A stretch of 64,000 nt of DNA from an uncultured delta proteobacterium (GTDB lineage Bacteria > Desulfobacterota > Binatia > Binatales > Binataceae): positions 70,192 to 134,191 of the forward strand of contig CAWHNS010000001.1 of assembly GCA_963830715.1 (NCBI GenBank). Reading direction: 5' to 3'. The translations under genes and the position numbers were made by a program. Below are positions 5,632-61,491 of the stretch, piece by piece. Within the stretch, counting starts at the first letter, position 1, and the number at the start of each line of letters is the position of its first letter. The notes beneath the pieces were generated by a model. That model had not been told where the DNA came from. It saw only the letters and a list, made by a program, of their open reading frames with translations, and did not search any database.

Positions 5632-5635
5632 GCCA

Positions 5636-6207: not shown

Positions 6208-6215
6208 AAATCGCC

Positions 6216-6240: not shown

Positions 6241-6263
6241 TGTGGACGCGGCGTTTCCAAGGT

Positions 6264-6294: not shown

Positions 6295-6353
6295 ACCCAG
6301 CCGGTCCACTAATATGGCGATGGGGAAAAGGGGACGTGGGTTAGAGGGCTGTA

Positions 6354-7574: not shown

Positions 7575-7601
7575 GGAAGCATTAATCGCGCGGAGGGGAT
7601 C

Positions 7602-8018: not shown

Positions 8019-8025
8019 GCACAAC

Positions 8026-8346: not shown

Positions 8347-8373
8347 ACGATCGGATGCGGGAGCAGCGCAACC

Positions 8374-9020: not shown

Positions 9021-9024
<4 letters not shown>
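8374..9024 (+). CDS. hscB: co-chaperone HscB (J-domain) with an N-terminal Cys-rich extension
   Basis: HPD motif (RRVHPDRF), HscB-like C-terminal helical region, and N-terminal CPSC..C..C..CPDC. Confidence 0.85.
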
Positions 9025-10928
<1,904 letters not shown>

Positions 10929-11000
10929 AGGACCTGTTGAGAAACGATCACTGAGTGCTAGCCTCAGTATTGACAAAGGACTATACGGAGGGCAGAGCCG

Positions 11001-11222
11001 ATGGGACTCAAATGGGATCAGGCCGAGGATCTCGCCGAAGTGCTGGCCGAGAACCATCCCGGGCTTAATCCGCTCGATGTCCGCTTTACGGATCTGCGCC
11101 AGTGGGTAGTCGATCTTGATGAATTCGACGATGATCCGGGGGCGTCAAGTGAGGCGAAGCTGGAAGCCATCCAGATGGCGTGGAACGAGTTGTACGAGGA
11201 GCAGAGCGAGGATGATGAATAG
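11001..11222 (+). CDS. iscX: Fe-S assembly protein IscX (YfhJ)
   Basis: 73 aa: MGLKWDQAEDLAE...VRFTDLRQWV.DL.EFDDDP closely follows my recall of E. coli IscX. Confidence 0.85.
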   Translation: MGLKWDQAEDLAEVLAENHPGLNPLDVRFTDLRQWVVDLDEFDDDPGASSEAKLEAIQMAWNELYEEQSEDDE

Positions 11223-11238
11223 CCGGCAAAAGGCCGGC
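11222..11238 (+). terminator. short GC hairpin (GCCGGC-aaaag-GCCGGC) at the iscX stop; weak terminator candidate
   Basis: Read directly. No U-tract follows. Confidence 0.3.
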
Positions 11239-11302
11239 GTCTAGCAATAAGGAGGATGGGGCGGTGGAGAATGAGGTGGTAAGAACGGATCAGGGAGCTA
11301 AA

Positions 11303-11854
11303 ATGCAGGAGAAAGAAACATTGGACGAAAGGCTGCCGGCGCTTTTTGAGCCCGACACCCTTTTGCCAATCCAATACTTCGAGGCGATGCGCCGCAAGCA
11401 TCTGCTCGAAGGTGAAAAACGCCTGATCCTGAGCGTCCTGGAGGATGCGGTCGAATGCTTCATGAAGTGTATCGACTCGCCTACCAATAAGGGCCAGAGA
11501 CTTTTCCGCGAGGCCGAGGAGTGGATCAACCTCGAGGACAAGCATTGGGTGTTTTCCTTCGACAACGTTTGCGACATGCTCGACATCAACCCCGAGTACA
11601 TGCGCCGCGGATTGCGCGAATGGAAGCAGCGCAAGATCGAGGCGATGGCGCGCGCGGCCGAAGCCGCGGCGCAGGCTGCCGCGATGCCGCAGCCGCAGGT
11701 CGAGGTCGAGGCTCCGAAGCCTGAGCCGCAGAGCACTGCCGTCAAGTCCAAGTCGCACGAGGAGAAGGCGCGCTCGCGGACGCAGCAGAAGCGGCTCAAG
11801 AGGCGCAACGTCGCGGACTCGCGCCGCTCCGCCCTGCGCAAGGCCCGCGCGTAA
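11303..11854 (+). CDS. hypothetical protein with a conserved-looking N-domain and a highly basic Ala/Gln/Pro-rich tail
   Basis: ATG 11303 is preceded by GGGAG. The ORF track starts at GTG 11264. I recognise no family. Confidence 0.5.
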   Translation: MQEKETLDERLPALFEPDTLLPIQYFEAMRRKHLLEGEKRLILSVLEDAVECFMKCIDSPTNKGQRLFREAEEWINLEDKHWVFSFDNVCDMLDINPEYMRRGLREWKQRKIEAMARAAEAAAQAAAMPQPQVEVEAPKPEPQSTAVKSKSHEEKARSRTQQKRLKRRNVADSRRSALRKARA

Positions 11855-11974
11855 ATCCGGCTGCTCCGGACTCTCTCATCGACCGGCGAGCCGCCGGAGT
11901 CTTACTTCCAGCTTTCGCCGCAATCGGCGCCGTCGTGGTCTGCCTTGACCGCACAAATTCCCCGCGCGCGAACG

Positions 11975-12253
11975 ATGCCAATCCGCACCAAGATCGAATG
12001 CCCTCACTGCGAGACTGATCTGGTCGTCAAGCGCGGCGGCGTATGCCCCAATTGCGGGGCGCAAATCGCAGAACATGTCGCCCGCATGCGCGCCCGCGAA
12101 CGCCGAATCGAACAGGTAGTCGCGGTCGTCGCGACGGCGCTGGTGCTGGCGCTGTTCCTGGTCACCAGCGGAGTCAGCCTCCTTGAAGGAGTCGCGGTCT
12201 ACGCCGCAGTCGGCGCCGCGATCTTTTTCCTCGCCCGCCGGACTTTTTTCTGA
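11975..12253 (+). CDS. small zinc-ribbon protein with a C-terminal membrane anchor
   Basis: CPHC..(13)..CPNC followed by a hydrophobic stretch. ATG 11975 lies within ORF 11945..12253. Confidence 0.4.
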   Translation: MPIRTKIECPHCETDLVVKRGGVCPNCGAQIAEHVARMRARERRIEQVVAVVATALVLALFLVTSGVSLLEGVAVYAAVGAAIFFLARRTFF

Positions 12254-12255
12254 GT

Positions 12256-13254
12256 TCAGCCCGTGACGAGCCGTTCCATCGAGCGCAGGATCTTTGCGCG
12301 GCGTTCTTCGGGCGAGCCGGCGAGCGAGTTGAATTGCAGCGCGGTGGTCGTGACTCCCGCCTTTTCGTACTCGTTCAGGCGCCGCCGGCATTTCTCCGCG
12401 CTCCCGAAGACGAAGATCGATTCGACCATCTCGTCCGGCACTGCCGACACCGCTTTCTTGCGGTCACCCGCCTTCCACGCGTCCATCGCGAGGAGCGCTT
12501 CGTCCTCGTAGCCTATTTCCTGGAAGAACTTGTTGTACTGCGGGACGGTGAGATAGGCAGTCAGCGCGCGGCGCATCAGCGGAAGAATCAGCCCCTCGTC
12601 CTCGTCGACCGCGACCATAATCCGGCACACGACGTCGATCCGATCGGTATTCCGGCCGGCGGTTTTGGCGCCCTCGCGTACGCAGGCGAGCATCTGCGGC
12701 AGTTTCTCCGGAGTGATGAAGTTCGTGATCAATCCGTCGCCGATTTCGCCCGCCACGCGCAGCATCTTTTCCCCCTGCGCCGCGATATAGATCGGCGGCG
12801 GCGCGTCCACAGGCAAATCCATGCGGAAGCCATCGATCCTGACGGCCTTGCCGGCGAGGGTGACCTTCTCGCCACGGAAGATCGCGCGCAGCGCCGCCAC
12901 CGTCTCGCGCAACAGCGTCAGCGGCTTGCGATAAGGGACGCCCATCCATCGCTCGACGATCGGCGGCGTCGAGATCCCGAGTCCGAGCACGAATCTGCCG
13001 CCCGAGATTTGCTGGACGGTAGCCGCCGACATCGCGATCAGCGCCGGCGGGCGCGTGAACACCGGCACAATCGCAGTGCCGAGCCGCATCTTCGCCGTCG
13101 CGACCGCCGCCGCGGCAATCGGCGCGAACGCGTCGGGTCCGAAGGATTCGTAGGACCACGCGTCGGTGTATCCCAGGCGCTCCGCATGCTGCGCCAGCTC
13201 GATCATGTGCCGGTTGATGAAGGGATCGAACGAAAATGTAATTCCAAGTCGCAT
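12256..13254 (-). CDS. LLM-class (luciferase-like) flavin/F420-dependent oxidoreductase
   Basis: 332 aa with a typical LLM pattern: MRLG..F......ELAQHAERLGYD..W..E; GRF.LGLG. Confidence 0.85.
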   Translation of the reverse strand: MRLGITFSFDPFINRHMIELAQHAERLGYTDAWSYESFGPDAFAPIAAAAVATAKMRLGTAIVPVFTRPPALIAMSAATVQQISGGRFVLGLGISTPPIVERWMGVPYRKPLTLLRETVAALRAIFRGEKVTLAGKAVRIDGFRMDLPVDAPPPIYIAAQGEKMLRVAGEIGDGLITNFITPEKLPQMLACVREGAKTAGRNTDRIDVVCRIMVAVDEDEGLILPLMRRALTAYLTVPQYNKFFQEIGYEDEALLAMDAWKAGDRKKAVSAVPDEMVESIFVFGSAEKCRRRLNEYEKAGVTTTALQFNSLAGSPEERRAKILRSMERLVTG

Positions 13255-13332
13255 GGCTGTGCCTTCGATTTTTCCGCAGCTTAACGCAATTGTTGCTCCC
13301 GAAGTAGTAGGGCCGGCGTCCCGCCTGCTGGG

Positions 13333-16223
13333 TCATTCCGCGCCGGAGAACTTCGCATTCAGCACTTGCGCGAGGTGCATCGGGCGGCGGCCGGGACAGA
13401 ACGCCCTGATCTGCGAGCGGCACGAGAACCCATCCGCGATCACGATCGTGTCGCGATCGCTCGCGTTGATCGCCGGTACCAGAATCCGCCCGGCGATCGC
13501 TCGCGATACGTCGAAGTGGCGCGCCTCGTATCCGAATGCGCCTGCCATCCCGCAGCATCCTGCGTCCAGCACGTCGAGGCCAAGCCCGCGTATCCTGCCG
13601 AGGATCGAAACCTCGTTGTCGAGTCCCGCGATCGCCTTCTGATGACAATGCCCCTGCAGGAGCGCGTTGCCGGCGATCGGCGGCGGCGCAAATTCCGGTG
13701 CTTCCCGCGCGATCAATTCGTCGAGCATCAGGCTCGATCGGGCGAGCGCCCCGGCCCGCGAATCGTTGGGGAACAGTCCGGGCAACTCGTCGCGGAATGT
13801 CAGGATGCAGCTCGGCTCGAGGCCGACGATGGTCGCGCCGCGCTCGGCCCGCGGACCAAGAACCTCAAGTATTTCTTTAAGTCGTCGCTTCGCCGTGGCG
13901 AGCATCCCCTGGTCGTAGAGAGGCCGGCCGCAACAAAGGTCGCGATCCGGAATCGTGACCCGGAAACCTGCGCGCTCCATCACCTCGACCGCGGCGATTG
14001 CGACCTCGGGCTCGAAGAAATTGGTGAAAGTGTCGGGGAACAGGATGACCTCGCGTCCCGAAGACGCCGCGGCGCGGCGGCTCCTGAACCAGGACCGGAA
14101 TGAGCGTGCCGCGAAGCGGGGGAACTCGCGCTCCGGATGAATTCCGATCGCGCGCTTGAAGATCGCCGCCCCGACCGAACCGTGCGAAAGCGCATTCGCG
14201 ATGCGAGGCGCAAGCTGCGCGATACGCGCCAGTTGATGGATGCGCCCGAAGAGATGGGCCGACATCGCTCGCGCATGTCGCTCGTGGTAGTGGGCGAGGA
14301 ATTCGGCCTTGTAGGTCGCCATATCGACCGTGGCCGGACATTCAGCCTTGCACGCCTTGCAGGAAAGACAGAGGTCGAGCGCCTCCGCGACCTCAGGGTC
14401 AACAAGTCCTCCCCGCAGCAGGTCTCCGCTGAGCGCCTCGAACAACAGCCGAGCGCGTCCCCGCGTCGAGTGCATCTCCTCGCGGGTCGCCATGTAGGAG
14501 GGGCACATCGTGCCGGCGTCGGTCTTTCGGCACTTGCCGATCCCCACGCATTTGAGCGCTGCGCCCGCAAGTCCGCCGTCGCCGCTGAAGTCGAAGTGAG
14601 TATCGACGGGACGGGGACGCAGAGCCGACAGGCGCAAGTGCGAGTCGAGCGGTTCGGGATCGACGATCACGCCGGGATTCATCATGCGATCCGGATCGAA
14701 GGCGCGCTTGAAGGCCACGAAGGCGTCCATCAGCTCGGAGCCGAACATTTTCGGCAGAAGTTCCGATCGCGCCAGCCCGTCGCCATGTTCGCCGGAGAGC
14801 GAGCCGCCGAATTCGACGACCAGGTCCGCGATCTCGGACATCGCAGCGCGAAAGTTCGCGATTCCCTCCGCAGTCGCAAGGTCGAAGTTGATCCGGCAAT
14901 GGACGCATCCTTCGCCGAAGTGTCCGTAGTAGGTCGCGGCTTCGAAGCTGTCGCCGCTCGAGCAGCGCGGCGAAACGTCTTAGGTACGCGCCGAGACTCT
15001 GCGGCGATACCGCCGCGTCCTCTGCGCCCGGCCATGTGCGCGGGTAGCCTCGAATTACCGCGCCGGCGCCGAGGCCGGATTCGCGCAAACGCCAGACCGC
15101 CTGCTGGTCGGCGGGATCGGCGACCAACACCGCGCCGGTGCACTCGCGAACCCTACGGGCTTGATCGACCAGCGCCTCGCCGCGATCGCGAAGTTCGTTA
15201 TCGCGATCGGCGCCGAGCTCTACGATCAGAAACGCGTGACCCGCGGGCATCAGCCGCATCGCCGCGCCCTGACCGCCCCTCGCTATTGCGAAATCGATCA
15301 GCTTGCGGTCGAAGCCTTCAAGCGCTTGCGGCCGATGCGCGAGAATCCAGGGCGTCTGGTCGGCGGCAAGGTACACGTCCTCGAAACCCATCACGACCAG
15401 GCAGAGCCGGCGCGGACGCGCGGCCAGCTTCAGCGTCGCGTTCAGAGTCACCGCGAGCGTTCCCTCCGAGCCTGCGACCGCGCGCGCCAGGTTAAAGCCG
15501 TTCTCAGGCAGGAGCTGATCGAGATTGTAGCCCGGATACTCGCCGCGGAATTTTCGGATACCGCTGCCGAACGAGGTCGCCATAGCGGTCGCGCAACTCG
15601 CGCAGAGTCGAGATGATCGCACGTCGCCTGTCGCCGGTCCGAGTGCCTGCGGCCGGATCGGCTCCGGCGATGTCAGCGCCATTCACTGCGGCGAGCCTGA
15701 GCCGCGTGCCGTCGTAGAGCGCGACCTCCATCGCTTCGAGATTGTCAACCGTCTTGCCGTAAGCGGCCGAATGCGCGCCGCACGAGTTGTTGCCGATCAT
15801 TCCACCGATCGTGCACCGATCTTTGGTGGTCGGGTCGGGCGCGAAGAACAAGCCATGGCGTGCCAGGGCGGCATTCAGGTGGGCCTGCACCACGCCCGGC
15901 TCGACCACGGCCAGCTTCCGATCGGCGTCGATACTTCGGATCGCGTTCATGTACTTGGAGAAATCCAGCACGAGCGCGGTGTTGCAGGTCTGGCCGGCGA
16001 GCCCCGTTCCGCCGCCGCGTGCGAGCACCGGTATCGCGTTCTCGCGCGCCAGCGCGAGACAAGTCATCACGTCGCCCTCATGACGCGGGATGACGACTCC
16101 AACCGGCACGCGCCGGTAGTTCGACGCGTCGGTCGAGTAGATCGCCTTGGTTCCCTGATCGAAGCGCACCTCGCCGTCGATCCGGCGGCGCAATTCGTCC
16201 TCGAAGGCCTTGGTCGAACTCAT
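13333..16223 (-). CDS. FAD-binding (GlcD/PCMH-type) + Fe-S + CCG-domain oxidase fusion; reading frame broken twice in this sequence
   Basis: The N-terminal part (16223-15504) has GGGTGLAG. The middle is in the frame of ORF 14399..15682. The C-terminal part (14841-13333) has CLSCKACKAECP and GCCGMAG. Junctions read ..RRVSG|YNLDQLLPENG.. near 15527-15533 and ..ALLER|GDSFEAATYYGHFGEGCVHCRINF.. near 14953-14962. Confidence 0.85.
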
Positions 16224-16420
16224 CTGAATGCGATCTTAATCGATGAGCGGCCCGCGCGCCCATCACGTCGCACAGATCGCGGGCAGGCCCTCGATCAGGG
16301 CGCCACTGACCCCGACGCTGCACTGGGACAGTTTTTATCGCGAGTTGACGGCCTTGACCCTGTTCGCGACGCCCACTAAACAGGAGTTCGCCCGATTGAT
16401 ACGGTGTCCGGAGGACTTCT

Positions 16421-17581
16421 ATGCCCCGTGCCTACACGATCACCGCTGATGCTATCGCGTCGGAGCGCCGCCGCGTTAACGATGACCTGTCGAAGTTCGA
16501 CATTTCCCGGGTCCTCAGGATGGACCGGCTCGAGTTGCGCCCGATGGATCTCCACGACGTTCATCTCAGGATTCTCGCGGTCTCGGCGGAACACAACGTC
16601 GATCATGCAGCGCTCGCCGACACGGTGAACATCGTCCAGTTGCGCGGCGGAAAAATTTATCCGGGCAATAGCGCGGTCGGCGAGGTCCTGGCCGTGGGCG
16701 CCGATGTGCGCACGTTCAAGCCGGGCGACATCGTGATAACGCACTGCAACGGTGAGCCGGACATCTACGGATACCCGCTGCGCATCTGGGCCTACGATCA
16801 GCCGGATTCCGTCGGCTGGTATGGAGAAGAGGCGATCGTCGGCGACTGGCAGATCATCCCGGCGCCGCTCAAGTGCGGCCTGAATCTGTGGCAGATCGCG
16901 GCGCTGCCGCTGCGCGCGCCGACCGCGTACCATCTATGGCGCCGCGGCCACGATATCTTCCGCCTCAAGGTGCAACGGGAGAAGCTCGCGCGATTGAATG
17001 TGCTGGCGTTTGGTGGCGGGGTTTCGGAGTTCTTCCTGATGCTCGCGAAGGCCGAGGGACATAGTGGCTTCTTCTGCTCCGGCAGCCCGGCTCGCCGCGA
17101 GTAGCTCGAACGGATCGGAATCGCGTCGATCGACCAGAACGTTTTCAACCGCTTTGCCACTCCCGACGATGTAAAGAATTTCAGCAAGGAGGTGAAGCGG
17201 CTCACCGGCGGCGAAGGGATGCACATCGTATGCGACATGCTGCGGGGCCTGGTGTTCCCGGCGGGCGTCGCCGCGCTGGCGCGGGCGGGTGTCAACGTGA
17301 GCGCGGGCTGGCAGCTCGAGAAAAAGATCAGCTATGACTCGGCGGGACTCGCGGTGCGCCAGATCACGCTCGACCACACGCACTACGAGACGATTGACGG
17401 CTGCCGCGCGGCGACCGAGTTGTACGGGACCGTGTTCCGCCCGACCGTCCATCGGGAGATCTACGCCTTCGACGACCTCCCGCGATGCATGCAGGAGATG
17501 CTGGACAATCAGCAGACGGGCATCCCCGTGGTTCGCGTGGCGTCCGAGATGCCCCGGTCTGTCCAGCCCCTGATAGCATAG
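16421..17581 (+). CDS. medium-chain dehydrogenase/reductase, enoyl-CoA carboxylase/reductase (Ccr/ECR)-like; interrupted by one in-frame TAG
   Basis: ORFs 16421..17104 and 17192..17581 are in the same frame, and homology continues straight across TAG 17102-17104 (..SPARRE*LERIGIASIDQ..). The segment RIWAYDQP.SVGWYGEEAIV....P......W.IAALPLRAPTAYHLW recalls the ECR block IWGYETN.GS.AE....P..L.WEEAA......TAYR.L. Confidence 0.65.
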
Positions 17582-49788: not shown

Positions 49789-51071
49789 TCACTGCGGCAG
49801 CAGCAGGAATGCGTGCTTCTGGCCCTTGATCAGTCCCTCACCGACGATCTGTCCGCTGTTGTTAATCCCGAACGCTTCGAGAAGGTAGAAACCGGAATTG
49901 GCGGGAATCATCGTGTTGAGGTCGTGCATCGTCCCGTCGAAGAGGAAGGCCCGATTGAAGCTCTGGTTGCCGGCGGCGCGCAGGTGGCGCTCGGGGCGGG
50001 CGCGCCGTAGTAGAGCTGCGAGTAGCCGACGATCTGCGGCCTCGGCGTTCCTTTGATGACGCGACCGTTCATGCATTCGCCGCCCTCGCGGTCGCTCGTG
50101 TTCACCAGCCGCTCGAGCGTGCTCACCCCGGTTACCAACCGGTTCCGGCCGGAGGGATCCTTGATCATCATAGGGAGCTTCGCGAAGGGGGTGAGGAGGT
50201 CCCGCATCTTGCCGTTCTGCCACAGGAAGGCGTGACGGATCCCCTTGCCTGAGCGGGATTTCAGATCGGACCAGCCGGCGACCTGATCGAAGTTGTTGAT
50301 GCAGGTGGCCTCGCTCTGCAGCCCGCCGAGCGTGCCGAGGTCATCGGTGCTTTGGTCGAGCTTCGAAACGCCGAGATGCAGGAAGGCGTGCGACGGCCCG
50401 CTCGCCGTGGCGGCCGTGCCGACCACGTGTCGGCTGCCGTTGATGTCGTAGGCGAAGCTCACGTCGGTGCCGAAATTGCCGAGGTCGAAAGGCGCCCCGA
50501 TGGCTGACGATGTGACGGGCTCGCCGCCGTTGAAGAGCACGGCGTGCGGATTAGGGTCGGAGGCCAAACCCGCAACGCCGACAATTATGCCGAGTCCATC
50601 ACTGTTGTATGCGATGCTGAAAACGGTCTTGCCCGTCGGATCGAGCGGGGTGTCCGGAAAGAGAGTGGCTTCCTCGACCCCCGATGGATTGATCTCGCCA
50701 ACGATGACGTTCGGCTGGTTGACGCTGAACGCGATGCTGTTCTGCCCAGGTGGCCCGAGCTTGGCCAGCATTGGGCTGGCCGTGGCGTTGCTCCAGACGA
50801 CCGCCTGGAAATTGCTGCCGGGGGCAAGAATGGCTCCGGAGACATCGCCCGAATCGTTGATCGTGAACGCCACACTCTGATCGCCTGGCGCGAGGGCGCC
50901 GAGATCGACGACCCGGAATTGGCCCCATGCCGGCGATGACGCCGTTGCGCCGGCGCTGAAGGCGCACAGCGCGACGGCGCAGAGGCGTCGAAGACGGCCG
51001 GATGGCGGAGAACCCTTCGCGTCTCGCGCAGAGACGCCGCGCTGATTGAATATCGTGAAATCGCGAAACAT
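49789..51071 (-). CDS. secreted HAF-repeat protein; one frame break in this sequence
   Basis: Signal peptide. Repeated ..HAFL(W/H/L)..G.M.DLGTLGG..S.A..IN..GQ(V/I)(A/V)G units. The junction ..SQLYYGAP|RPERHLRAAGNQSFNRAFLFDG.. lies near 49995-50008 and joins ORFs 49908..51137 and 49789..50223. Confidence 0.7.
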
Positions 51072-51273
51072 CGGTGTCCCCCTCCTCCTCGCCCGGAGCC
51101 GGACGCGCCGGTGCCATGGCTGGCGTAGTACCACCATGGACGGGCATAGGCAACACGGAACCTGGAACGGGCCTCGTCAACAGACTGACTGCGGCGGCAC
51201 CCCGAAGTTGCCGCGTCTGCTCTTTGCGATCGGGCTGTTCCCGGACGCCCGCGACAGCCAAAATCCTGATCAT

Positions 51274-52248
51274 ATGCTTGATGCACGAACCGCCGTCGCG
51301 CCTCGCGCGATTGGCCTCAACGAATTCCTTCTCACGCACAAAGGCGACCTCACGCTGGCGTTCTCGGCGTTGGTTTACGTTGCCAGCTGGACAGTCCTCA
51401 TGTTCACCCGATGGAGGGCCCCGGCCGAGATCGGAGTCTCGATGGCGGAAGCGGCGCTGATCGGCGGGCTGTGCGACTACATCGCGCTCAAGATGATCTT
51501 CGAGCGGCGCTGGTACCTGCCGAATTCGGGCGTGCTGCCGCGCAACCGGGTGAAGCTGATCGACGGAATCGCGACCACCATCGAGAACGAATGGCTGACG
51601 CCCCAGATGATCGGGCGCAAGCTCAATGAGATGGAGCTGGTCGGACGTCTCGGCGTTTTCCTGGAGGACACGAAGCTGGATCTGCTGCTGGGCGAGGCGG
51701 GAATCGACCGGCTGTTGAACCGCGCGATCGAGTACCTCGAATCGCCGGCCCAGCGCGATCGCGTCGAGGCGGCCCTCAAAAAGGCGTTGCCGAAGACCTT
51801 CACGCGCATCTATGCGCTCATCAACCGGTTCGGGGCCGAGACCTTGACCGCCCGCATCGCGGCCAATCTCCGCAAGCGCCTGCCGGAGCTTCGCAACGAC
51901 CCTGAACTAATCGAGGCGATCGAGGACGCAATCCACGAGTTGGGCCATCAGCTTCACGACCCGCAGAGCTACGCGCATCAGCTTGCGCGCAGGATGATCG
52001 ACGCGATCGTCCGCCGCGCCGTCGAGGCGAGCCGTGGCCAGATATCGCACATGGTGCGGGAAAATCTGGCGCAGTTGTCCGACGATCAGATCAGGTTCCA
52101 GATCGAATCCAAGACCCGCACTCACCTGGACTGGATTCGCGTCAACGGCGGCATCTTCGGCGCGATCTTCGGGCTGTGCTTCGCGCTGGCGCGCATACTC
52201 GCGCATCATGGGCCGGCGTTGATCGGGCGGCTTCACGCGCCGATGTAG
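51274..52248 (+). CDS. DUF445-family membrane protein
   Basis: ..GGLCDYIALKMIFERR......GVLPRNR..L...I...IE.E.L.. and C-terminal ..WIRVNGGIFGAIFG.. match recalled DUF445. ATG 51274 lies within ORF 51046..52248. Confidence 0.6.
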   Translation: MLDARTAVAPRAIGLNEFLLTHKGDLTLAFSALVYVASWTVLMFTRWRAPAEIGVSMAEAALIGGLCDYIALKMIFERRWYLPNSGVLPRNRVKLIDGIATTIENEWLTPQMIGRKLNEMELVGRLGVFLEDTKLDLLLGEAGIDRLLNRAIEYLESPAQRDRVEAALKKALPKTFTRIYALINRFGAETLTARIAANLRKRLPELRNDPELIEAIEDAIHELGHQLHDPQSYAHQLARRMIDAIVRRAVEASRGQISHMVRENLAQLSDDQIRFQIESKTRTHLDWIRVNGGIFGAIFGLCFALARILAHHGPALIGRLHAPM

Positions 52249-52260
52249 ATCGGAATCGAA

Positions 52261-54941
52261 CTAGGGGAACGCGCCCGCCTTTAGAGCCAGCGCCAGCGTT
52301 GTCCAGCCGCCGACGTTCATAGCGGCCGGATCTGCGGGTACGGTGCCGGCCGCGACCAGCGTCTTGTCGCCGGCGGCCGCGCCGTAGTTGACGCCGTTGC
52401 TATACTGCCGCACTGGAATACGCCCGGTCAGGTCTGAGGGAAGAACAAAGCCCTGGTTGGCGGCGGTGAAGAATCCCACGTAGGTGTCGCCGCTGTGCGC
52501 GGTCGTGAACGAGCACAGCGTGGGAGCGGTGCTGCTGCCCGAGTTGCCGCAGAAGCCGTCTTCGGGCGCCGCCGGATCCACTCCCCGATAGACCAGCATC
52601 CCGCCCGCTTCATAGGGCGTGCTGCCGCTGAACGACCATTTGTAGATCGATCCTGAAGCCTCATTGTTGGCGAAGCGGTACCACACTGAGATTACGCCGT
52701 CGCCGGTGCGGACCGCAGAGTTCATCAACTGCCATCCCGAGGGCGGAGTTGCTGTTGCGTATACCCAGTAAGAATAGAACGCCAGCATCAGGTCGCCGTT
52801 CTGAACGTTGGACGGGAGGGTCTGGTTGGTGTTGCTGGCACTCGAAGCGCCGACAAATGCGATCGCCCCGGCGATCGGAGTAGGGCTTGGCGTCGGCGTT
52901 GGAGTAGGAGTCGCGACCGGTGTCGGAGTGGGCGTCGGTGTCGGAATCGGAGTGGGCGTCGGCGTCGGAACCGGAGTTGGAGTCGGCGATGGGGGGGGGG
53001 GGGTTGGCGTTGGAGTTGGGGTTGATGTCGGCGTCGCAGTTGGCGTGGGAGTCAGAGTAGGTGTTGGCGTCGGCGACGGGGTCGGCGTGCTGGTCGGGCT
53101 TGGCGTGGGGGTTGATGTCGGTGCCGGCGTCGGCGTCGTTGTCGGAGTAGCGGTGGGCGTCGGAGTCGGGGTCGGCGTTGGAGTCGCCGATGGGGTCGGA
53201 GTTGGCGTCGGAGTGGGAGTTGGCGTCGGAGTCGGGGTCGGCGTTGGAGTCGCCGATGGGGTCGGCGTGCTTGTCGGGGTCGGCGTAGGAGTGGGAGCAG
53301 GTGTCGGCGTCGCAGTTGGCGTGGGAGTCAGAGTAGGTGTTGGAGTCGCCGATGGGGTCGGAGTTGGCGTCGGAGTGGGAGTTGGCGTCGGCGTTACGGC
53401 TGGCGTCGATGTAGGAGTCGGTGTCGCGGTGGGGCTGGGTGTTGCGGTCGGGGTGCCCGCGGCCTTTAGAGCCAGTGCCAGCGTTGTCCAGCCGCCGACG
53501 TTCATAGCGGCCGGATCTGCGGGTACGGTGCCGGCCGCGACCAGCGTCTTGTCGCCGGCGGCCGCGCCGTAGTTGACGCCGTTGCTATACTGCCGCACTG
53601 GAATACGCCCGGTCAGGTCTGAGGGAAGAACAAAGCCCTGGTTGGCGGCGGTGAAGAATCCCACGTAGGTGTCGCCGCTGTGCGCGGTCGTGAACGAGCA
53701 CAGCGTGGGAGCGGTGCTGCTGCCCGAGTTGCCGCAGAAGCCGTCTTCGGGCGCCGCCGGATCCACTCCCCGATAGACCAGCATCCCGCCCGCTTCATAG
53801 GGCGTGCTGCCGCTGAACGACCATTTGTAGATCGATCCTGAGGCCTCATTGTTGGCGAAGCGGTACCACACTGAGATTACGCCGTCGCCGGTGCGGACCG
53901 CAGAGTTCAGCAACTGCCATCCCGAGGGCGGAGTTGCTGTTGCGTATACCCAGTAAGAATAGAACGCCAGCATCAGGTCGCCGTTCTGAACGTTGGACGG
54001 GAGGGTCTGGTTGGTGTTGCTGGCACTCGAAGCGCCGACAAATGCGATCGCCCCGGCGATCGGAGTAGGGCTTGGCGTCGGCGTTGGAGTAGGAGTCGCG
54101 ACCGGTGTCGGAGTGGGCGTCGGTGTCGGAATCGGAGTGGGCGTCGGCGTCGGAACCGGAGTGGGCGTCGGCGTCGGAACCAGAGTTGGAGTCGGCGTCT
54201 GAGTTGGAGTCGGCGTCTGAGTTGGAGTCGGCGTTGGAGTGCGTGTCGGCGTCGGGGTTGGCGTCCGGGTGGGGGTTGGAGTCGGAGTCCCGGCCGAGGT
54301 TGGAGTCGCCGATGCCGTCGGAGTAGGGGTCGCCGCGTTCGTGTTCAACTCGGCGGTATCGAGTGCGAAGTCGGTGCAGGTTCCGACGCAATTCGTAAGG
54401 CTGAAAATCACACTGGTGATGTTGGCGCCGGTCTGGTCGCGCACGCCGGCATAGAGAGCGTCGCCGTTCGAGTCGCTGGTTGCGGTGAAAGAACCAAGCG
54501 AGCTCGCGCCATTGAAGGCTTGGATCTGGGCCGTGAATTGACCCGGTCCGTCCGCCTGAATCAGGGCCCCGCGCCCGATATGGATTTGCCGAAACTCAGA
54601 GTCAGAGGCCCGTTGCCGCCGTTTGCGGCATCTGACGTCCAGATGAGGCTATCGCCGGCGGTGAACCCCGATCCGCTCCAACTGCACGAAGCCGCCGGGC
54701 ATACCACCGAGATGATGCTGTTGGGGCCGGCCAGCGTGACGGTGGCCGCCAGGCTTGCCGATGAAGTCACGCTCGCGCTGGATCCGAGGACAGTCAGGTT
54801 GGCGCCGAGTTGTGACCAGCTTATGGAATCGTTTGCGGACTGCCCGGCCTGGCTCGTCACAAAGACCAGGGAATCCGCGCTCGCATCACCGGCCGCGAGC
54901 AGGATTGCTACGACCAGAATGTGCAGCTTGTAGCGCTGCAC
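52261..54941 (-). CDS. secreted protein of unknown function: N-terminal unknown domain, then two near-identical ~205-aa unknown domains each preceded by a long (Pro-Thr)n linker; one frame break near the N-domain
   Basis: GTG 54941 gives the signal peptide [22 protein letters not shown]|D. The junction ..SISGAGP|(L)[16 protein letters not shown].. lies near 54559-54566 and joins ORFs 54561..55070 and 52261..54444. I cannot name either globular domain type. Confidence 0.7.
52278..52977. repeat. copy 1 of a 700-bp near-identical direct repeat (offset 1185 bp)
   Basis: Aligns base for base with 53463..54162. I saw only 3 substitutions (52289 c/t, one a/g in tgaAgcctc, one t/g giving Met/Leu in GWQL(M/L)NS). 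Confidence 0.9.
52978..53462 (-). repeat. coding low-complexity tract: (ACN-CCN)n Pro-Thr linker with an internal 66-bp periodicity and a G13 run (52991-53003)
   Basis: Translates [16 protein letters not shown].. The 66-bp unit recurs at 53161 and 53227. Confidence 0.85.
53463..54162. repeat. copy 2 of the 700-bp near-identical direct repeat
   Basis: See copy 1. Confidence 0.9.
54163..54335 (-). repeat. second (N-proximal) Pro-Thr linker-coding tract
   Basis: Translates ..[49 protein letters not shown].. Confidence 0.8.
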
Positions 54942-54976
54942 CCGCAGCGAGCCAGTCGCCGCTCGAACGCGAGGGC

Positions 54977-56166
54977 CTACATGCATACGGGCCCGGCGCC
55001 GCTGGTGAAATGGCCATTGTCGGAATACCAGCCGTTGACCCCGATCGAGGGCGACTGGCGAAAGAACCACGAGAAGAAAGCCAGTTCCTGCAAGTGGTAT
55101 GAATACCCATTAGGCATCGTAACCGCGGGAAGCACCGTGCCGGTCAGCGGATCTCCAACTTCGAGGTTGCCCTGACAGCCACTGACCTGGCCGACATGGC
55201 CCCAGGCGGGCGTTGCATTGCCGCCGAGCGGGTCGTCCATCCATTCCGCCACCTCGTGGCTCATCGCGGCGGTGTCTCTGAAGAGCCGAAAATTCCGGTG
55301 GTATCGAAATCGACGGGCGCGTAGAACTGGTAGGGGTATCCGAACGCGGCGTGATAGCCAATGATGCAGCAGTTTCCGCTCAGCGACGGCGTGCCGTAGG
55401 TCATGACCACATCGTGAAGCACGAAGACGGGGAAGATGGTCGGCCCGACGCCTTGCGAGGAAAGTGCGGGAATGAGCGTGCCTTCCAGGTAGGAGTCGAA
55501 CCAGCCTATGTCGATTACCCCTATGTTGCCGCATCCTCCGTAAGGACTACTACTATTGGTGGAGCCGCTGCCCGACGGCACATTTACAGTCACCGGCGCA
55601 AGAGTAGTAATCGGACTGAGTACCGTATGATAGCTACTTCCGGCGACTGATACGTGGGTCCAGAAATTGGCGCGCTGGAAAGCATCGACGTACTGGGTGG
55701 TGCCCATGCTGGTGCCGCCGAAGGTGAAGCTGGTCGCGGTCAGCAGCGGCGATTGTTGCACCAGGGTAATTGCGCTGGAGGATGTGCAACCATCGGACAC
55801 GGTCGGGTCGAACACGCCCCCATCCGGCATGTTGATCGCCAGCGGAACGACGACCGCGCCGACGTTCGTGGTCCTGGCTCCATGGAAGAACGGGCTGCGG
55901 CCAACCATCGTGCCCGAGTAGGAATTGCCGTCCAGAGGTGAGGTAACGGTGAAATTCCACAGCGGGACGGTGCCGCTGCTCGACGCGGTGCCGAAGCTCT
56001 GTGCCATCGGAGACGTCGAAGAACCGAGATCCTCTCTCAGCGGCGCGAAGGTAAAATATCCGGGCGGCGGCTTCAGCAGGGTGGCTTGCTGGCCGAACCC
56101 CGCGGCCGCGGTGGCGCAAAGGCCGACGATAGCGCCCAAAAACGCCCACCCGGGTTTGCCGCTCAT
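54977..56166 (-). CDS. secreted protein of unknown function (about 395 aa); one frame break in this sequence
   Basis: ATG 56166 lies 6 nt after GAAGGAAG. Signal peptide MSGKPGWAFLGAIVGLCATAAAGFG. The junction ..TTGIFGSS|(E)DTAAMSHEVAEWMDDP.. lies near 55273-55287 and joins ORFs 55261..56193 and 54977..55534. Conserved-looking blocks are CCIIGYHAA, SHEVAEWMDDP and LQELAFFSWF. Confidence 0.6.
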
Positions 56167-56228
56167 CAAAAGCTTCCTTCTATTCGACCACACTGGGAGT
56201 TCCTGGGCGGGGCCAGCCTAATGGCAGG

Positions 56229-56251
56229 AATATATTACAGGCTGATATATT
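56229..56251. promoter_or_regulatory. AT-only perfect palindrome AATATAT-N9-ATATATT in the 145-nt gap upstream of the secreted-protein gene
   Basis: Read directly. It is the only AT-rich patch in this region, and on the minus strand it offers TAATAT-type -10 hexamers. Confidence 0.35.
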
Positions 56252-56338
56252 AGTTTGGGCGCGAGTTGGAAGCAATGCCAGAAATGCGTAAGAGGGCGCT
56301 TTGCGCCGCGCGGCGTCTGGGGAAAAGACCGGGGCCGA

Positions 56339-57725
56339 TCAGTGAGGGCAGACGGGAGCGATCCATGATGGCCGTGAAAGCATTTGCGGATAGCGGAGCG
56401 CGCCCGGCACGTTGATCGCGGCGCCACTCAGGAGGAAGAGCGCGAGCGCGGCACGCGTCGATCGGCCGCCGGCGTTCCATGCGACCGCAACCGCGAGAGC
56501 CATCCAGGGAAGAAACGGCACCCAGTAGCGCGGGCCATAGCAGTAACCGGGTCCAAAGCCTGGCCGCAGCTACGACGGTGGCAAAGAGGACGAGAGGAAT
56601 CACCATGTGACGCGCCAGGCCCGCGCCATTCCGGCTGTCGGGGCGCGAATGCAGCAGCGCAAGGGGCGCAAAGATCACCCACGGTGCGAAAAAAAGCAGG
56701 CCGTGCTCGGGCTCCAGGAAGGTTTCGTAGAGCGAGCTCAGGTTGTGCGCCAGCGCCGTGCCGCTCACGAGGTTGCCGGAAATGATCGGCGTGCGCGCCA
56801 ACCAATAGTTGAACCCGATCAGGCCCGCGGCACAGATGGCCAGCGCGGCGCTCATCATTCCCGCCTGACGCCAGCGGCGGTCCCATAGCGTCTCCAGCAC
56901 GAAGCCCGCGCCGACTACGGCGTAGGGCGGCTTCAAGATTGCTGCGGCTGCGGCGGCGAGGGCCGCCAGCAGGAAGCGCTCTTCCTCCATCGCCCACAGA
57001 GCGAGAATCAAGGTCAGCCCGATCACCGGCTCGGAGTAATACGATCGCGCATACGGCAGCCATGGACTGGCCAGTGCGAGGATTGCCACGCCCACGACGG
57101 AGCCGGCGCGGCTCATGCCGGCGCGACGCGCCGCCACGAAAGCCACGATGCACGTAACCCACGAAATGAGGACCATCGCCACACTTGCCTCGCCCTCCAC
57201 GTCTTCAATCGACGGGCGAAAAGGCGCGATGAGCGCCGCAAGCAGGGCGGGATAGGCCACCGGATGGGCCGACACTTCGTACAGGTCGGGTGAGGGCTTG
57301 AGCAGAGTGGCCTCCGCCGGGCTGATGAGTGCCGGGTCGCCCTTGTGCAGATCCATCCAGGTTGCGTGCGCTCCGGTCCGCCGATTGACGATGATCGTAT
57401 GATGATAAAGGTTAATCCCGCGGCAGAGGACGCCCGCTTCCAGGCCTGAATTGCCGACTCGCTCGTAGTCATCCTGCAACTCAAGATCATGGTCGAACAG
57501 GATGCTGTTCACGACCATGAGGTAGTGCGGCTCGTCGCCCTTCATTGCCATTGCCGGAACAATTCTCAAGTGCCGTCCTGGGACATGCGTGCCGTGAACA
57601 TACATTCCGCACTCCAGCCAGAGGTGGGTCACTCCCCACATCGCGGCCAACAGCAGGAGGAAGAACAGAATCAATCCCGCCCGGCGCAACGATTCGGCTA
57701 CAGCTTCCGTCAACGGCAACTCCAT
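56339..57725 (-). CDS. polytopic membrane protein, GT-C-fold glycosyltransferase-like (family not identified); one frame break near the 3' end
   Basis: About 10 or more hydrophobic segments. The first extracytoplasmic loop carries KGDEPHYLMVVNSILFDHDLELQDDY (an acidic DE..Y motif as in ArnT/PMT-type enzymes). The junction ..VVAAA|(x)FGPGYCYGPRYWVPFLPW.. lies near 56555-56566 and joins ORFs 56250..57725 and 56339..56521. Confidence 0.55.
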
Positions 57726-57804
57726 GCACTGCGGGTCGTTTCTATCAACACGGTTACGGAACTAAAATAGGCGCGCTCGCACTTGCGGAGTGGAGGATGC
57801 AGCG

Positions 57805-59016
57805 ATGTTGAGAAAGACGATTCTCGTCCTGGCGATTTCGCTGGCGCTCTCCGGCGCCCGCGCTCGTGCTGCCGACACCGAAGCGATTGGTACGCGCGTA
57901 TCGCTCTTCGATCCTCGATTCGAGGCGGCCGCCTTCCGCCATCTCGACCGGCTCTACCCGAGCCACAAAATCTCGCGGTCGGGGCCGGTGTCCGAGATTC
58001 CCCGCGCGCAGTCGCAGCTCGGCGCGGTCCGCTACCGATGGAAAGGCGGGGAGCGAACCCTCGACGACCTTCTGGCGCGCAGCAAAACCACGGGTTTCCT
58101 CGTCATCAAAGACGGACGCATCGTGATGGAGCGCTACTTCGGCGGCGCGAGCGATACTTCGACCTTCACCTCCTGGTCGGTGGGGAAGTCGTTCACCTCC
58201 ACGCTGCTGGGACTGGCGATTTCGGATGGCAGGATCGCCGGCGTCAACGATCCGGTCACGAAATACCTTCCCGAATTGAGAGGCTCCGGATACGACGGCG
58301 TGCCGATCAAGGACATCCTGCAGATGTCGTCCGGGGTCGAGTTCAACGAGGAATATACCAATACCGAATCAGACGTAAACCGGATGTGGACACAATGCAT
58401 GGCGCGAAACGCTTCCACCCTGAATGATTTTCTCAAGACGATAGGTCGCGAGGAAAAGCCGGGGACCAAGTTCGTGTATCGGAGCGCCGACACCCAGGTC
58501 CTCGGATGGCTCGTCAGGCGCGTGACCGGCGAGACGCTCGCCGACGCTCTCACGCGCCGGATATGGGGAAAACTCGGGATGGAGCACGACGCCACCTGGC
58601 TTACCGATCGGCCGGGGCCGGACGGGATGGAGGCGGCATTCTGCTGCATCAACGCGACGCTTCGCGATTACGGCCGTTTCGGCCTGCTGTTCCTCAACCG
58701 GGGCAACTGGAACGGGAAGCAGATCGTGCCCGCATCATGGATCGAGCAGGCGACAGTCCCCAGTTCGCCGCAGGTGCAGCCGGGCAAGCTCTACAAGGGA
58801 GATCCGCAAGGCTACGGGTATCAATGGTGGACGTTTCCCGGCCCGAATCGCGCTTTCTCGGCTGAGGGAATCTGCTTCCAGTTCATCTATGTCAATCCCG
58901 GCCGCAAGCTCGTGATCGTCAAGAACAGCGCATATCCGCAGCCGTGGGACGTCCAACTCGAGATCGAGCAGTTCGCCGCGTTCCAGGCGATCGCGCGGAC
59001 TCTGGAAAGTCGCTGA
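57805..59016 (+). CDS. secreted serine hydrolase of the beta-lactamase/class C-related family
   Basis: Signal peptide and SxxK motif (WSVGKS). ATG 57805 lies 8 nt after GGAGG. Confidence 0.85.
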   Translation: MLRKTILVLAISLALSGARARAADTEAIGTRVSLFDPRFEAAAFRHLDRLYPSHKISRSGPVSEIPRAQSQLGAVRYRWKGGERTLDDLLARSKTTGFLVIKDGRIVMERYFGGASDTSTFTSWSVGKSFTSTLLGLAISDGRIAGVNDPVTKYLPELRGSGYDGVPIKDILQMSSGVEFNEEYTNTESDVNRMWTQCMARNASTLNDFLKTIGREEKPGTKFVYRSADTQVLGWLVRRVTGETLADALTRRIWGKLGMEHDATWLTDRPGPDGMEAAFCCINATLRDYGRFGLLFLNRGNWNGKQIVPASWIEQATVPSSPQVQPGKLYKGDPQGYGYQWWTFPGPNRAFSAEGICFQFIYVNPGRKLVIVKNSAYPQPWDVQLEIEQFAAFQAIARTLESR

Positions 59017-59055: not shown

Positions 59056-59627
59056 CTAGCTCGTGCGATCGGACGGGCCGATTTCCAGACTTACGCGCAT
59101 CGTGCCGGACTCATAGGAATCGCGTACTCGAAAGCCGCTGTTCGCGAATACTTCCAGCATCTGCGTGTTGCTGCCCATGACGTATGCGACGAATTCCGTG
59201 ATCCCGCCGGTTCGCGCGATCCGCGCGAGATGTTTCAGCAGCAGGGTGCCGACGCCCTGTCCCTGGTAGTCGTCGAGCACCGCGAACGCAACTTCAGCTC
59301 GATCCGGCGCGTCCCACCGCACGTAGCGTCCGACGCCGATAAATTGCTCGTCGCGCTCTCGCGCCCCGCGACCGTCGCCACCAGACCGACATGATTTACG
59401 AAGTCGAGCTCGGTGAAGCGGCGCAGATCCTGGTCGTCGAGCGACCGCTTGAGGCCGAAGAATCGATAGTAGACGGAGCGCGGGCTCAGGTGCGCGAAGT
59501 GTTCGAGCAGCCGTTGCTTGTCGTCGGGACGGATCGCGCGAATCCGTATCGGCCTGCCGTCACGCATCACTTCGCCGGCTGCATAGCTCGCCGCGGCTGG
59601 CACCGTGGTTTGTCCTGAATCCGGCAT
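59056..59627 (-). CDS. GNAT acetyltransferase (Pat-type C-terminal-domain-like); one frame break in this sequence
   Basis: ..IRIRAIRPDDKQRLLEHFAHLSPRSVYYRFF.. and ..DDYQGQGVGTLLL.. The junction ..VAGR(E)|ERDEQFIGVGRYV.. lies near 59356-59362 and joins ORFs 59235..59627 and 59056..59322. Confidence 0.75.
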
Positions 59628-60457: not shown

Positions 60458-61491
60458 ATGCGCAAGCGCGCTCGTGCGGCGCTCCGCCCCCCTAGGGCGG
60501 ATGATCGCCGGTTGTGGGACGTGATGCTCGGCATTTGGGGCTATCCCGCGGTGCTGGTCGCCGACGAGCTCAAGTTTTTCGAGATGCTCGCCGAGAAGGA
60601 GCTCGCGCTCGACGAAATCTGCAAAACCAGGCGGATTCCGGCCCGCTCGGCCCACGCGATTCTCGCGGTCTGCACATCGCTGGGCCTGATGTCGCTGCGC
60701 AACGGTCGCTACGCGCTCACGCCCATATCGCGGGAATATATGCTGCCGTCGAGTCCGTACTTCTTCGGCTGGTTCTACAGTGCCTGGCGACTCGTCATTT
60801 CGGTATGGACGCCGGACTCGCTGCGCGAGGCGGTCCTCACCGGCCGACCACAGGGCGTCTTTTCCGATCCCGGGGGCGTGTTCGCATCATGGCACTCCCG
60901 ACACGCTGAGGATTTCACGCGGGCGATGCATAGCGCGAGCATGGCGCCCGCGATGGTGTGGCCGCGCAAGCTTGACCTGTCGCGAGCCCGCGTGATGCTC
61001 GATGTCGGCGGGGGGTCGGGAGCACACTCGATTGGCGCCGTGACCGTGCGGCCGAAGCTGAGGGCGATCGTCCTCGATCAAGCGACGATCTGTGCGATCG
61101 CGCTGGAGAGCGCGGAGAAATACGGCGTCGCGGACCGGGTCTCCACGCATACCGCCGACTTCTTCAACGATCCGTATCCGCCGGCTGACCTTCACTTTTA
61201 CAGCATGATCTTTCACGATTCGCACGCCCGAGCGATGCCGGTTTTTCGCCCGCAAGAGCTTCGACAGTCTGCCCTCGGGCGGGCGAATCATCGTCCACGA
61301 GATGCTCTTCAACGACGATCGGACCGGCCCGTTCCCGGTCGCCGCTTTCAACGTAGACATGCTGATCGCGATGCCGGGGCAGCAGTATTCCGGCCGCGAA
61401 TTCCTCGATGCTGAAAGACGCGGGCTTCCGCAAAGTCCAGGTCAAGCGCACGTTCGGATACTGGAGCATCGTGACCGGCCTGAAGCCGTAA
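60458..61491 (+). CDS. class I SAM-dependent O-methyltransferase (family 2, with N-terminal dimerisation/wHTH domain); two frame breaks in this sequence
   Basis: SAM motif LDVGGGSG. After ..YSMIFHD the homology (..PERCRFFARKSFDSLPSGGRIIVHEMLFNDD..) continues in the frame of ORF 61302.., and the last part (MLKDAGFRKVQVKRTFGYWSIVTGLKP*) is in the third frame. The breaks lie near 61217-61226 and 61405-61414. Confidence 0.75.

Follow-up and report, generated by a model that had tools for sequence, protein, structure and literature searches.

A GT-C-fold membrane protein beside a secreted (Pro-Thr)n-linker protein in a Binataceae genome: a candidate protein O-glycosyltransferase and a recurring g2-g3N gene pair

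Introduction

Does a bacterium of the Binataceae encode, side by side, a membrane glycosyltransferase and the secreted protein whose threonine-rich linkers it would glycosylate? The question is raised by three consecutive, co-directional genes on the minus strand, at positions 52261-57725 of a 64,000-nucleotide stretch of DNA from an uncultured member of that family; this whole stretch is referred to below as the window. The first gene, g1, encodes a polytopic membrane protein; the second, g2, encodes a secreted protein; and the third, g3, encodes a secreted protein in which two copies of one domain are each preceded by a long (Pro-Thr)n linker. PMT enzymes (GT39) use Thr/Ser acceptors in Pro/Thr-rich linkers of secreted proteins. 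An earlier note on this DNA had accordingly read the trio as a candidate self-contained module for protein O-glycosylation or surface display, in which g1, compared there with GT-C enzymes of the PMT/ArnT type, could be a glycosyltransferase with g3, and possibly g2 as well, as its substrate or partner.

The best explanation that we can offer for this locus is that two separate associations meet at one surface-type protein. In this composite reading, whose probability we put at about 0.4, g1 would O-glycosylate the (Pro-Thr)n linkers of g3 with a sugar from a lipid-linked donor, whose synthesis is encoded elsewhere in the genome, and g2 would be a separate partner of g3N, the N-terminal head domain of g3. 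The observations reported here concern the GT-C fold of the g1 model, patterns of synteny, domain architecture and residue conservation.

Results

The fold and family of g1

A structural model of g1 was built with AlphaFold2 (AF2) from an artificial concatenate of g1, g3N and g3C, the repeated domain of g3, using a block-wise alignment (A4) of short-form homologues only. Residues 1-317 of g1 were modelled at predicted local distance difference test scores (pLDDT) of 85-98, and residues 318-461 at scores below 50. The model comprises a helix at residues 5-34, corresponding to the first transmembrane helix (TM1), a loop at residues 35-156 that contains Asp64, and then about 13 helices. When this model was compared with the PDB using Foldseek, every helical match was a GT-C-fold protein, and nearly all of these are glycosyltransferases (probability 0.9-1.0). 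The best match was human ALG9, with an expectation value (E) of 1.1e-4 and a probability of 1.0; ArnT was matched with an E of 5e-3 and a template-modelling score (TM-score) of 0.36 on the target. Further matches included ALG12, PimE (probability 0.98), STT3, AglB, Pmt4, Pmt1/Pmt2, GPI-mannosyltransferase I and PIG-U, and the matches to PMT proteins (E 0.04-0.09) were weaker than those to ALG9 and ArnT.

The pattern of conservation was assessed in an alignment of 32 homologues (A1). Asp64 and Pro66 are invariant in the GDEPHY segment of the first loop, and His67 is nearly so. Towards the C-terminus, Gly397-Pro398-Arg399 is invariant within GPRYWVPFLPW, and two further blocks, NS.LFDHDLELQDDY and ASPWL.Y.R, are also conserved. 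Asp64 is, by this pattern, a candidate catalytic or metal-binding residue. The suggestion that g1 combines a GT-C fold with an acidic motif in its first extracytoplasmic loop is thus borne out by the model and by the invariance of Asp64.

Profile searches place g1 in no named family, and the same is true of the globular domains encoded by the other two genes, as had been suspected from the sequence. No part of g1, g2 or g3 matched Pfam, with g1 tested at E up to 1, and none reached an NCBIfam cut-off. The only two NCBIfam matches, both to g1, were far below threshold (E 7e-9 and 3e-8; scores of 35 and 33 bits where the cut-offs are 150 and 200), and both are putative families of cell surface glycopolymer formation or glycosyltransferases. 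Within the g1 family as sampled by alignment A1, GT87 (PF09594) was weakly matched by 2 of the 32 members (best E 7.6e-6), and PMT_2 (PF13231, ArnT-type, GT83-like) likewise by two (best E 3.6e-5); g1 itself matched neither. PF02366, the PMT family proper, and MIR were matched by none of the 32. Two close homologues, P0003 and P0004, carry precomputed PF09594 matches, and the source record of one homologue calls it an 'ArnT family glycosyltransferase'. Membership of g1 in the PMT, ArnT or PimE/GT87 families was rejected because the profile thresholds were not reached, so that g1 is not a member of the PMT/ArnT families with which the earlier note had compared it. The profile of the g1 family (A1) also gave nothing significant against PDB sequences. 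As identities of the membrane protein that would count against a glycosyltransferase, the earlier note had named a transporter and an O-antigen ligase or polymerase; Wzy_C, WaaL, Wzy and transporter families gave no Pfam or NCBIfam match to the g1 family, and none was among the top 50 Foldseek matches. The model therefore supports the assignment of g1 as a GT-C-fold membrane glycosyltransferase, belonging to an unclassified family that is expanded in the Binataceae, although the E-values and TM-scores of the matches are modest.

About half of the g1 homologues are longer, at about 700 amino acids (aa); in these, the GT-C core is preceded by an N-terminal signal peptide and a jelly-roll/CBM-like domain of about 170 aa. 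This additional domain is recognizable by the pattern 'NLLLNGDLS.G...P..W' (A1 columns 1-300; P0017, P0039, P0050, P0086 and others), and no Pfam family matches it.

Genes that accompany g1

The genomic surroundings of the g1 family were surveyed in 55 g1-anchored loci, with one genome per species and with clustering of the neighbouring open reading frames (ORFs). A g3N domain lies within 3 kb of g1 in five of these loci (L002, L008, L010, L047 and L032), and none was found in the remaining 636 kb of the g1 loci or in 250 kb of g2 loci away from their anchor. In a neighbour-joining tree of g1, which carries no support values and from which the frame-broken g1 of L047 was left out, the window g1 groups with that of L001, and this pair is sister to a clade formed by L002, L003, L008 and L010. 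In L002, L008, L010 and L047, g1 stands directly upstream of a g3-like gene; L003 has no such gene beside g1. The g3-like proteins of these four loci are 1000-1145 aa long; in them, g3N is followed by 200-260 Pro/Thr-rich residues and then by three repeats with homology to g3C (31% identity, E 5e-6).

The four loci, all in Binataceae genomes, share a region at about 3000-17500 of each locus in which the gene order is conserved. A secreted S53-like protein, which is pro-kumamolisin-like and missing from L008, is followed by a secreted BNR/Ig protein (BNR/sortilin+Ig), a YfhO-like protein, g1, the g3-like protein, a methyltransferase and, in L002, L010 and L047 but not in L008, a GT2 glycosyltransferase. 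This region is a better candidate for a protein-glycosylation island than the window itself.

Long linkers of this composition are rare in the surveyed DNA. Only 6 of the 630 ORFs of at least 200 aa in the g1 loci contain at least 100 PT-rich residues, and five of the six are located one or two genes from g1. One of these five, encoded at L025:12524-15826 on the minus strand, is unrelated to g3; it is a secreted protein of 1100 aa with an uninterrupted Thr/Ala/Pro-rich linker of about 500 aa. Its gene lies within a GT2/GT4/ABC cluster, in convergent orientation to a GT4 gene and a long-form g1 homologue. L025 counts as an independent instance in which a g1-family gene adjoins an extreme Thr-rich linker. 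That is, GT-C genes of the g1 family recur beside proteins with extreme Thr-rich linkers.

The survey also revealed what else accompanies g1. A GT2 protein of about 410 aa with C-terminal transmembrane helices is encoded in 19 of the 55 loci, directly downstream of g1 in about 10. In NCBIfam it is most similar to AglJ, dolichyl-phosphate hexose transferase, PpgS and ArnC, which identifies it as a polyprenyl-phosphate-sugar synthase, the usual supplier of donors for GT-C enzymes. Two GT4 families are present in 11 and 8 of the loci, and a Wzt-like ABC ATPase in 21. No homologue of the GT2 synthase, GT4, YfhO, ABC or methyltransferase partner genes was found in the 64-kb window. With no synthase of a lipid-sugar donor encoded there, the trio cannot be called a self-contained module.

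Architecture of g3

The g3 protein consists of a signal peptide, g3N, a first linker, a first copy of g3C, a second linker and a second copy of g3C (Table 1). Two linkers of roughly 90-150 residues had been proposed; the first, at 90 aa, agrees with this range, and the second, at 195 aa, is longer than the 150 or so expected. The two domain copies put at about 205 aa are indeed two, each of 200 aa, and they are nearly identical at the DNA level. Together with about 35 aa of the preceding linker each, they form a direct repeat of about 710 nucleotides with 2 mismatches (52277-52985 versus 53462-54170), whose units are 1185 nucleotides apart. A very recent tandem duplication could explain this repeat, as could gene conversion or misassembly of repetitive sequence.

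In the AF2 model of the concatenate, g3N is a confidently modelled all-beta sandwich (pLDDT about 90). Four of its Cys residues are invariant, as are many Asp, Asn and Gly residues. Its homologues always stand at the N-terminus after a signal peptide, and are followed by Ig-like, ASH or FG-GAP modules, by anchoring tails (PEP-CTERM or 'lipo-invert'), or by nothing; judged by this arrangement, g3N appears to be the head of surface-type proteins. When proteins with g3N were compared with NCBIfam, only the sorting and anchoring tails were recognized, and the head domain was unmatched. Linkers as long as those of g3 are exceptional among these proteins: just 4 of the 112 have at least 100 PT-rich residues, and the window g3, analysed separately, has 300.

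The model of g3C shows beta strands in its first half, at a pLDDT of about 70, and the rest is unmodelled. Tandem copies of the domain are likewise found in secreted proteins other than g3, among them P0241 and the S53-like protein of L003. Neither the g3N profile (A5) nor the g3C profile (A6) gave anything significant against PDB sequences. A Cys-containing stretch at about residues 104-140 of g3C (...YVGFF) weakly resembles fibronectin type II (fn2) modules; P0241-P0243 and P0245 have precomputed PF00040 matches, and the fn2 repeats of MMP-9 match the g3C stretch with an E of 0.13. The likeness is not significant and may be convergent.

The pairing of g2 with g3N

Conserved synteny of all three families as one module was not found. 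No g2 homologue lies within 10 kb of a g1 homologue in any of the 55 g1-anchored loci, and no g1 homologue lies within 10 kb of g2 in any of 80 g2-anchored metagenome loci. The three genes are therefore not kept together as a unit, and only pairs recur, namely g2 with g3N in 32 of 80 loci and g1 with a g3-like gene in 5 of 55. The idea of an enzyme-substrate pairing fares correspondingly: the g1 clade does stand repeatedly beside proteins built like g3, and the middle protein, which had been offered as a possible second substrate, belongs instead to the pair of g2 and g3N.

This second pair is robust. In the 32 loci, g3N lies within 3 kb of g2, about 30 times downstream on the same strand and twice upstream (L069, L072). 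Among the closest relatives of g2 the g3N partner is nearly always present, and no gene other than g3N recurs around g2 in the 80 loci. Source locus tags of homologues of g2 and g3N are adjacent (VNF27_04890/04885 and ACREQT_03810/03815). Seven representative ORFs (P0386, P0387, P0388, P0401, P0411, P0443 and P0446) even combine the two in a single reading frame, where g3N is followed by a PEP-CTERM sorting signal and then by a new signal peptide with g2; P0401 matches TIGR02595 above its cut-off. Whether these are true fusions or read-through of adjacent genes, both link g3N with g2, and they mark the g3N proteins as exosortase-type surface proteins. We conclude that g2 and g3N form a conserved unit. 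The genes g2 and g3 thus make up a conserved two-gene cassette; in the window the stop of g2 and the start of g3 overlap by 10 nucleotides, and their translation is probably coupled.

The g2 protein carries a signal peptide and the three motifs listed in Table 1. Its family is large: at 50% identity it amounts to 2110 representative clusters when E up to 1e-3 is allowed, and to 733 of these at 1e-30. Across 137 diverse members, R165, H272, H304, E305, E308, D312, N317, E336, D339 and four Cys are at least 95% conserved, a pattern that suggests an enzyme, possibly with a metal site. The AF2 model of g2 has a pLDDT of 72.8 and a predicted TM-score (pTM) of 0.77. A Foldseek search of the PDB and BFVD with this model returned nothing below an E of 0.1, the best matches being InhA2 (M6) at 0.13 and lugdulysin at 0.97; the g2 profile (A2) gave nothing significant against PDB sequences, and Pfam searches of 33 homologues at E up to 5 gave noise only. 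An assignment of g2 as a zincin metallopeptidase was rejected: the motif is HExxE (H304, E305, E308) and not HExxH, and the fold matches are not significant. What is retained is a weak resemblance to zincin peptidases. Other proteins combine the g2 domain with Ig-like, FG-GAP or DUF5648 modules. Thus g2 belongs to the association with g3N, and no link to glycosylation was seen.

Layout and integrity of the locus

The three genes and all of the motifs quoted in the earlier note were recovered at the places given for them, and their coordinates are collected in Table 1. The products listed were repaired by joining two frames at each break.

Table 1. Genes, motifs and domains of the g1-g2-g3 locus (positions in the window)
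Feature	Position	Strand	Description
g1	56339-57725	-	461 aa after repair; frame break near 56558
KGDEPHYL motif	57519-57542	-	first extracytoplasmic loop of g1, after TM1
DHDLELQDDY	57465-57494	-	first loop of g1
g2	54977-56166	-	396 aa after repair; frame break near 55279
CCIIGYHAA	55345-55371	-	motif of g2
SHEVAEWMDDP	55229-55261	-	HExxE...DD of g2, in predicted helix 300-311 following a beta-sheet; candidate metal/active site
LQELAFFSWF	55064-55093	-	motif of g2
g3	52261-54986	-	908 aa after repair; frame break near 54567
g3N	54331-54875	-	182-aa N-terminal head domain; all-beta sandwich (homologues, AF2 model)
(Pro-Thr)n linker 1	54061-54330	-	90 aa; 38 Thr, 35 Pro; candidate O-glycosylation region
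g3C copy 1	53461-54060	-	200 aa; domain without a named family
(Pro-Thr)n linker 2	52876-53460	-	195 aa; 82 Thr, 80 Pro; candidate O-glycosylation region
g3C copy 2	52276-52875	-	200 aa; one residue differs from copy 1

The genes g1 and g2 are separated by 172 nucleotides, and a Shine-Dalgarno-like GAAGGAAG precedes the ATG of g2. On either side the trio is bordered by an unrelated gene on the opposite strand, one encoding a DUF445 protein (51046-52248) and the other a member of the beta-lactamase family (57790-59016); genes for an aldehyde dehydrogenase, an O-methyltransferase and PhaC lie farther out. A scan of positions 51900-58100 for promoters and terminators found nothing exceeding shuffled expectation. 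The plus-strand guanine-cytosine (GC) skew is +0.11 to +0.18 at 52001-56000, as compared with about 0 to 0.05 across most of the window; this rise likely results from the (Pro-Thr)n coding repeats on the minus strand (ACN/CCN codons) and not from replication. Named homologues are almost all from metagenome-assembled genomes (MAGs) of Candidatus Binataceae or 'uncultured delta proteobacterium', with a few from Acidobacteriota, Myxococcota and Verrucomicrobiota.

Each of g1, g2 and g3 contains one frame break, and identical breaks are present in the public gene calls, where P0001 (491 aa) corresponds to the uncorrected g1 ORF of the window and P0121 (301 aa) to the initial portion of g2. Single breaks also affect unrelated neighbours, namely a gene for a secreted HAF/DUF3466-like protein (49789-51137), a GNAT gene (59056-59627) and an O-methyltransferase gene (60458-61414). 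The nearest relative of g1, P0002 (87% identity, 94% positives), is truncated at a site other than that in the window, and g1 is split at other positions in L046, L047 and L050, which are MAGs with the same MFD naming. There is no stop codon and no loss of conservation on either side of each break. Because unrelated neighbours are broken too, and because relatives of g1 are broken elsewhere, the breaks are probably indel errors of a long-read assembly and not signs of pseudogenization; the broken neighbours suggest a high indel error rate in the assembly rather than local decay.

Discussion

The question posed at the outset can be answered only in part by the locus itself, which, as found, is neither compact nor self-contained. 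For its function, including the type of donor, the acceptor and the roles of g2, g3N and g3C, we infer the following scheme. A GT2 enzyme encoded elsewhere in the genome would load a sugar onto polyprenyl phosphate, and the lipid-linked sugar would then be flipped. From this polyprenyl-phosphate carrier, g1 in the inner membrane would transfer the sugar on the periplasmic face, as other GT-C enzymes do, with Asp64 of the first loop (GDEPHY) acting in catalysis. The most likely acceptors would be Thr residues in both (Pro-Thr)n linkers, of 90 and 195 aa, as g3 is exported. By analogy with Cnm (PMC5856776) and with the Ser/Thr-rich disordered regions of streptococcal proteins (PMC12041528), glycosylation could stiffen the linkers and shield them from proteases. 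The g2 protein, secreted, enzyme-like and probably metal-dependent, would accompany proteins headed by g3N and stand outside the glycosylation machinery.

Several observations weigh against this composite reading. The GT2 donor synthase, YfhO and a flippase are all absent from the 64-kb window. L001, the nearest species-level relative of the window g1 (58% identity), has no g3-like neighbour. The g3N of the window shares up to 71% identity with copies paired with g2, but 53-56% with those of the sister clade, and therefore the window g3 may not be an ortholog of the proteins adjacent to g1. The four sister-clade loci are orthologous, so that the number of independent events is small, about three, and the g1 tree carries no support values. 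Furthermore, g1 was modelled within a concatenate, the C-terminal third of this model is unreliable, and its TM-scores to GT-C structures are 0.3-0.4. Finally, all three genes contain frame breaks, and most members of the g1 family are found in clusters of a polysaccharide type (GT2+GT4+GT4+ABC).

This last observation leads to a first alternative, since the usual acceptor of the family may therefore be a glycan and not a protein. That is, g1 might act on an envelope glycan or lipid, such as an exopolysaccharide, an O-antigen-like polymer or a lipid A-like molecule; its adjacency to g2 and g3 would then reflect a shared envelope theme, and g3C or g3N might bind that glycan. Such an activity would fit the company that most g1 homologues keep, in which a GT2 polyprenyl-phosphate synthase is joined by two GT4 enzymes and a Wzt-like ABC ATPase. 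It would also fit the secreted jelly-roll/CBM-like domain at the N-terminus of the long forms, the weak NCBIfam matches of g1 to families of 'cell surface glycopolymer formation', and the frequency of glycan-modifying three-component GT-C systems (PMC11127046, PMC5836110). However, no polysaccharide genes surround the g1 of the window, the recurrent neighbour in its clade is a Thr/Pro-linker protein and not a set of GT4 and ABC genes, and even the cluster-type homologue of L025 adjoins a protein with a Thr-rich linker of about 500 aa. We regard a glycan or lipid acceptor for the window g1 as somewhat unlikely.

It is also conceivable that g1 has no functional link to g2 and g3, and that an ordinary cassette of g2 and g3N merely follows an orphan GT-C gene, the PT linkers being plain spacers. 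The gap of 172 nucleotides between g1 and g2, as opposed to the overlap between g2 and g3, is consistent with such chance adjacency, as are the failure of g1 and g2 to occur together anywhere else, the closer similarity of the window g3N to copies paired with g2, and the missing association in L001. Yet g3N was found 0 times in 886 kb away from the g1 and g2 anchors, and still it abuts g1 in 5 of 55 loci and in the window; moreover, the unusual combination of g3N, a long PT linker and g3C-type repeats is common to the g1 neighbours at 31-56% identity. Mere coincidence thus strikes us as improbable. That the trio consists of decaying pseudogenes, each inactivated by a frameshift in a locus without current function, we consider very improbable. 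Exactly one break per gene, in the window and in the public gene calls alike, would agree with it; the flanks of the breaks show neither stop codons nor loss of conservation, unrelated neighbours (HAF-like, GNAT and O-methyltransferase) are broken as well, g1 is split elsewhere in other MFD-named MAGs (L046, L047, L050; P0002), and 94% positives in a relative of 87% identity are consistent with purifying selection.

Glycosylation of the g3 linkers by g1 would, if true, mean that O-glycosylation of Thr-rich linkers by GT-C enzymes is no longer confined to Actinobacteria (PMT) and Firmicutes (Pgf, PgtC2). The same chemistry would then operate in a soil phylum that is abundant and uncultured, through GT-C enzymes of a family that escapes all current profiles, and direct O-glycosylation of the PMT/Pgf type, with lipid-linked monosaccharides, would extend to bacteria that, judged by their lineage, are expected to be diderm. 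It would also change how secreted and surface proteins with PT linkers are read in soil metagenomes, and how their heterologous expression is approached. In its fullest form, the proposal is that g1 represents a new Binatota family of protein O-glycosyltransferases acting on (Pro-Thr)n or Thr-rich linkers, and that g2 represents a new family of metal-dependent enzymes, the obligate partner of a Ca-binding-like g3N head on anchored surface proteins; this conjunction we put forward tentatively, as somewhat unlikely to hold in all its parts. Irrespective of g1, the analysis exposes three sizeable unannotated families, g2, g3N and g3C, and defines the robust pair of g2 and g3N, a cassette that is its most novel by-product.

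Comparison with known systems

Several systems resemble the proposed activity in part. In the three-component GT-C mechanism described for ArnC/ArnT, GtrA/GtrB/GtrV and CsbB/YfhO (PMC11127046, PMC5836110), the acceptor is a lipid or glycan. The likeness lies in the GT2 proteins similar to GtrB, ArnC and AglJ near g1 homologues in 19 of 55 loci, and in the presence of ArnT among the best structural matches; the window differs in lacking a GT2 gene, and the g1 family in that PMT_2 is matched by only 2 of its 32 members. PimE (GT87) is a structural match to g1, and precomputed PF09594 matches exist for P0003 and P0004, whereas g1 and 30 of the 32 members lack PF09594, and PimE acts on phosphatidylinositol mannosides in Actinobacteria.

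The PMT enzymes (GT39) of Actinobacteria and fungi share with g1 the GT-C fold and an Asp-Glu motif in the first loop, Pmt4 and Pmt1/2 being among its Foldseek matches, and they would putatively share a polyprenyl-phosphate-sugar donor. They differ in that g1 has no PF02366 or MIR match in Pfam scans and, at 461 aa, is much shorter. In streptococci, GtrB (an Und-P-sugar synthase) and PgtC2 (a GT-C enzyme) glucosylate extracytoplasmic Ser/Thr-rich disordered regions and protect them from proteolysis (PMC12041528). This pair is likened to g1 by function and not by sequence, and its substrates are scattered over the genome, unlike a substrate encoded beside its enzyme.

By analogy, the closest precedent is the streptococcal Pgf/Cnm system, alongside actinobacterial PMT and GtrB/PgtC2. 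In that system (pgfS, pgfM1, pgfE, pgfM2), a GT2 enzyme and polytopic membrane glycosyltransferases modify the Thr-rich region of a surface protein, and the YfhO-like neighbour of g1 homologues weakly matches both PgfM2 and PgfM1 in NCBIfam. By contrast, g1 itself has no sequence match to PgfM1 or PgfM2, the window encodes neither a GT2 enzyme nor an epimerase, the host belongs to another phylum, expected to be diderm, and the acceptor would be a strict (Pro-Thr)n linker. The arrangement of an enzyme and its substrate in one operon, which had seemed to be undescribed, has a counterpart in Streptococcus mutans, where cnm is co-transcribed with pgfS, pgfM1 and pgfE (PMC5856776). Such an operon may still be new for this phylum and for this GT-C family.

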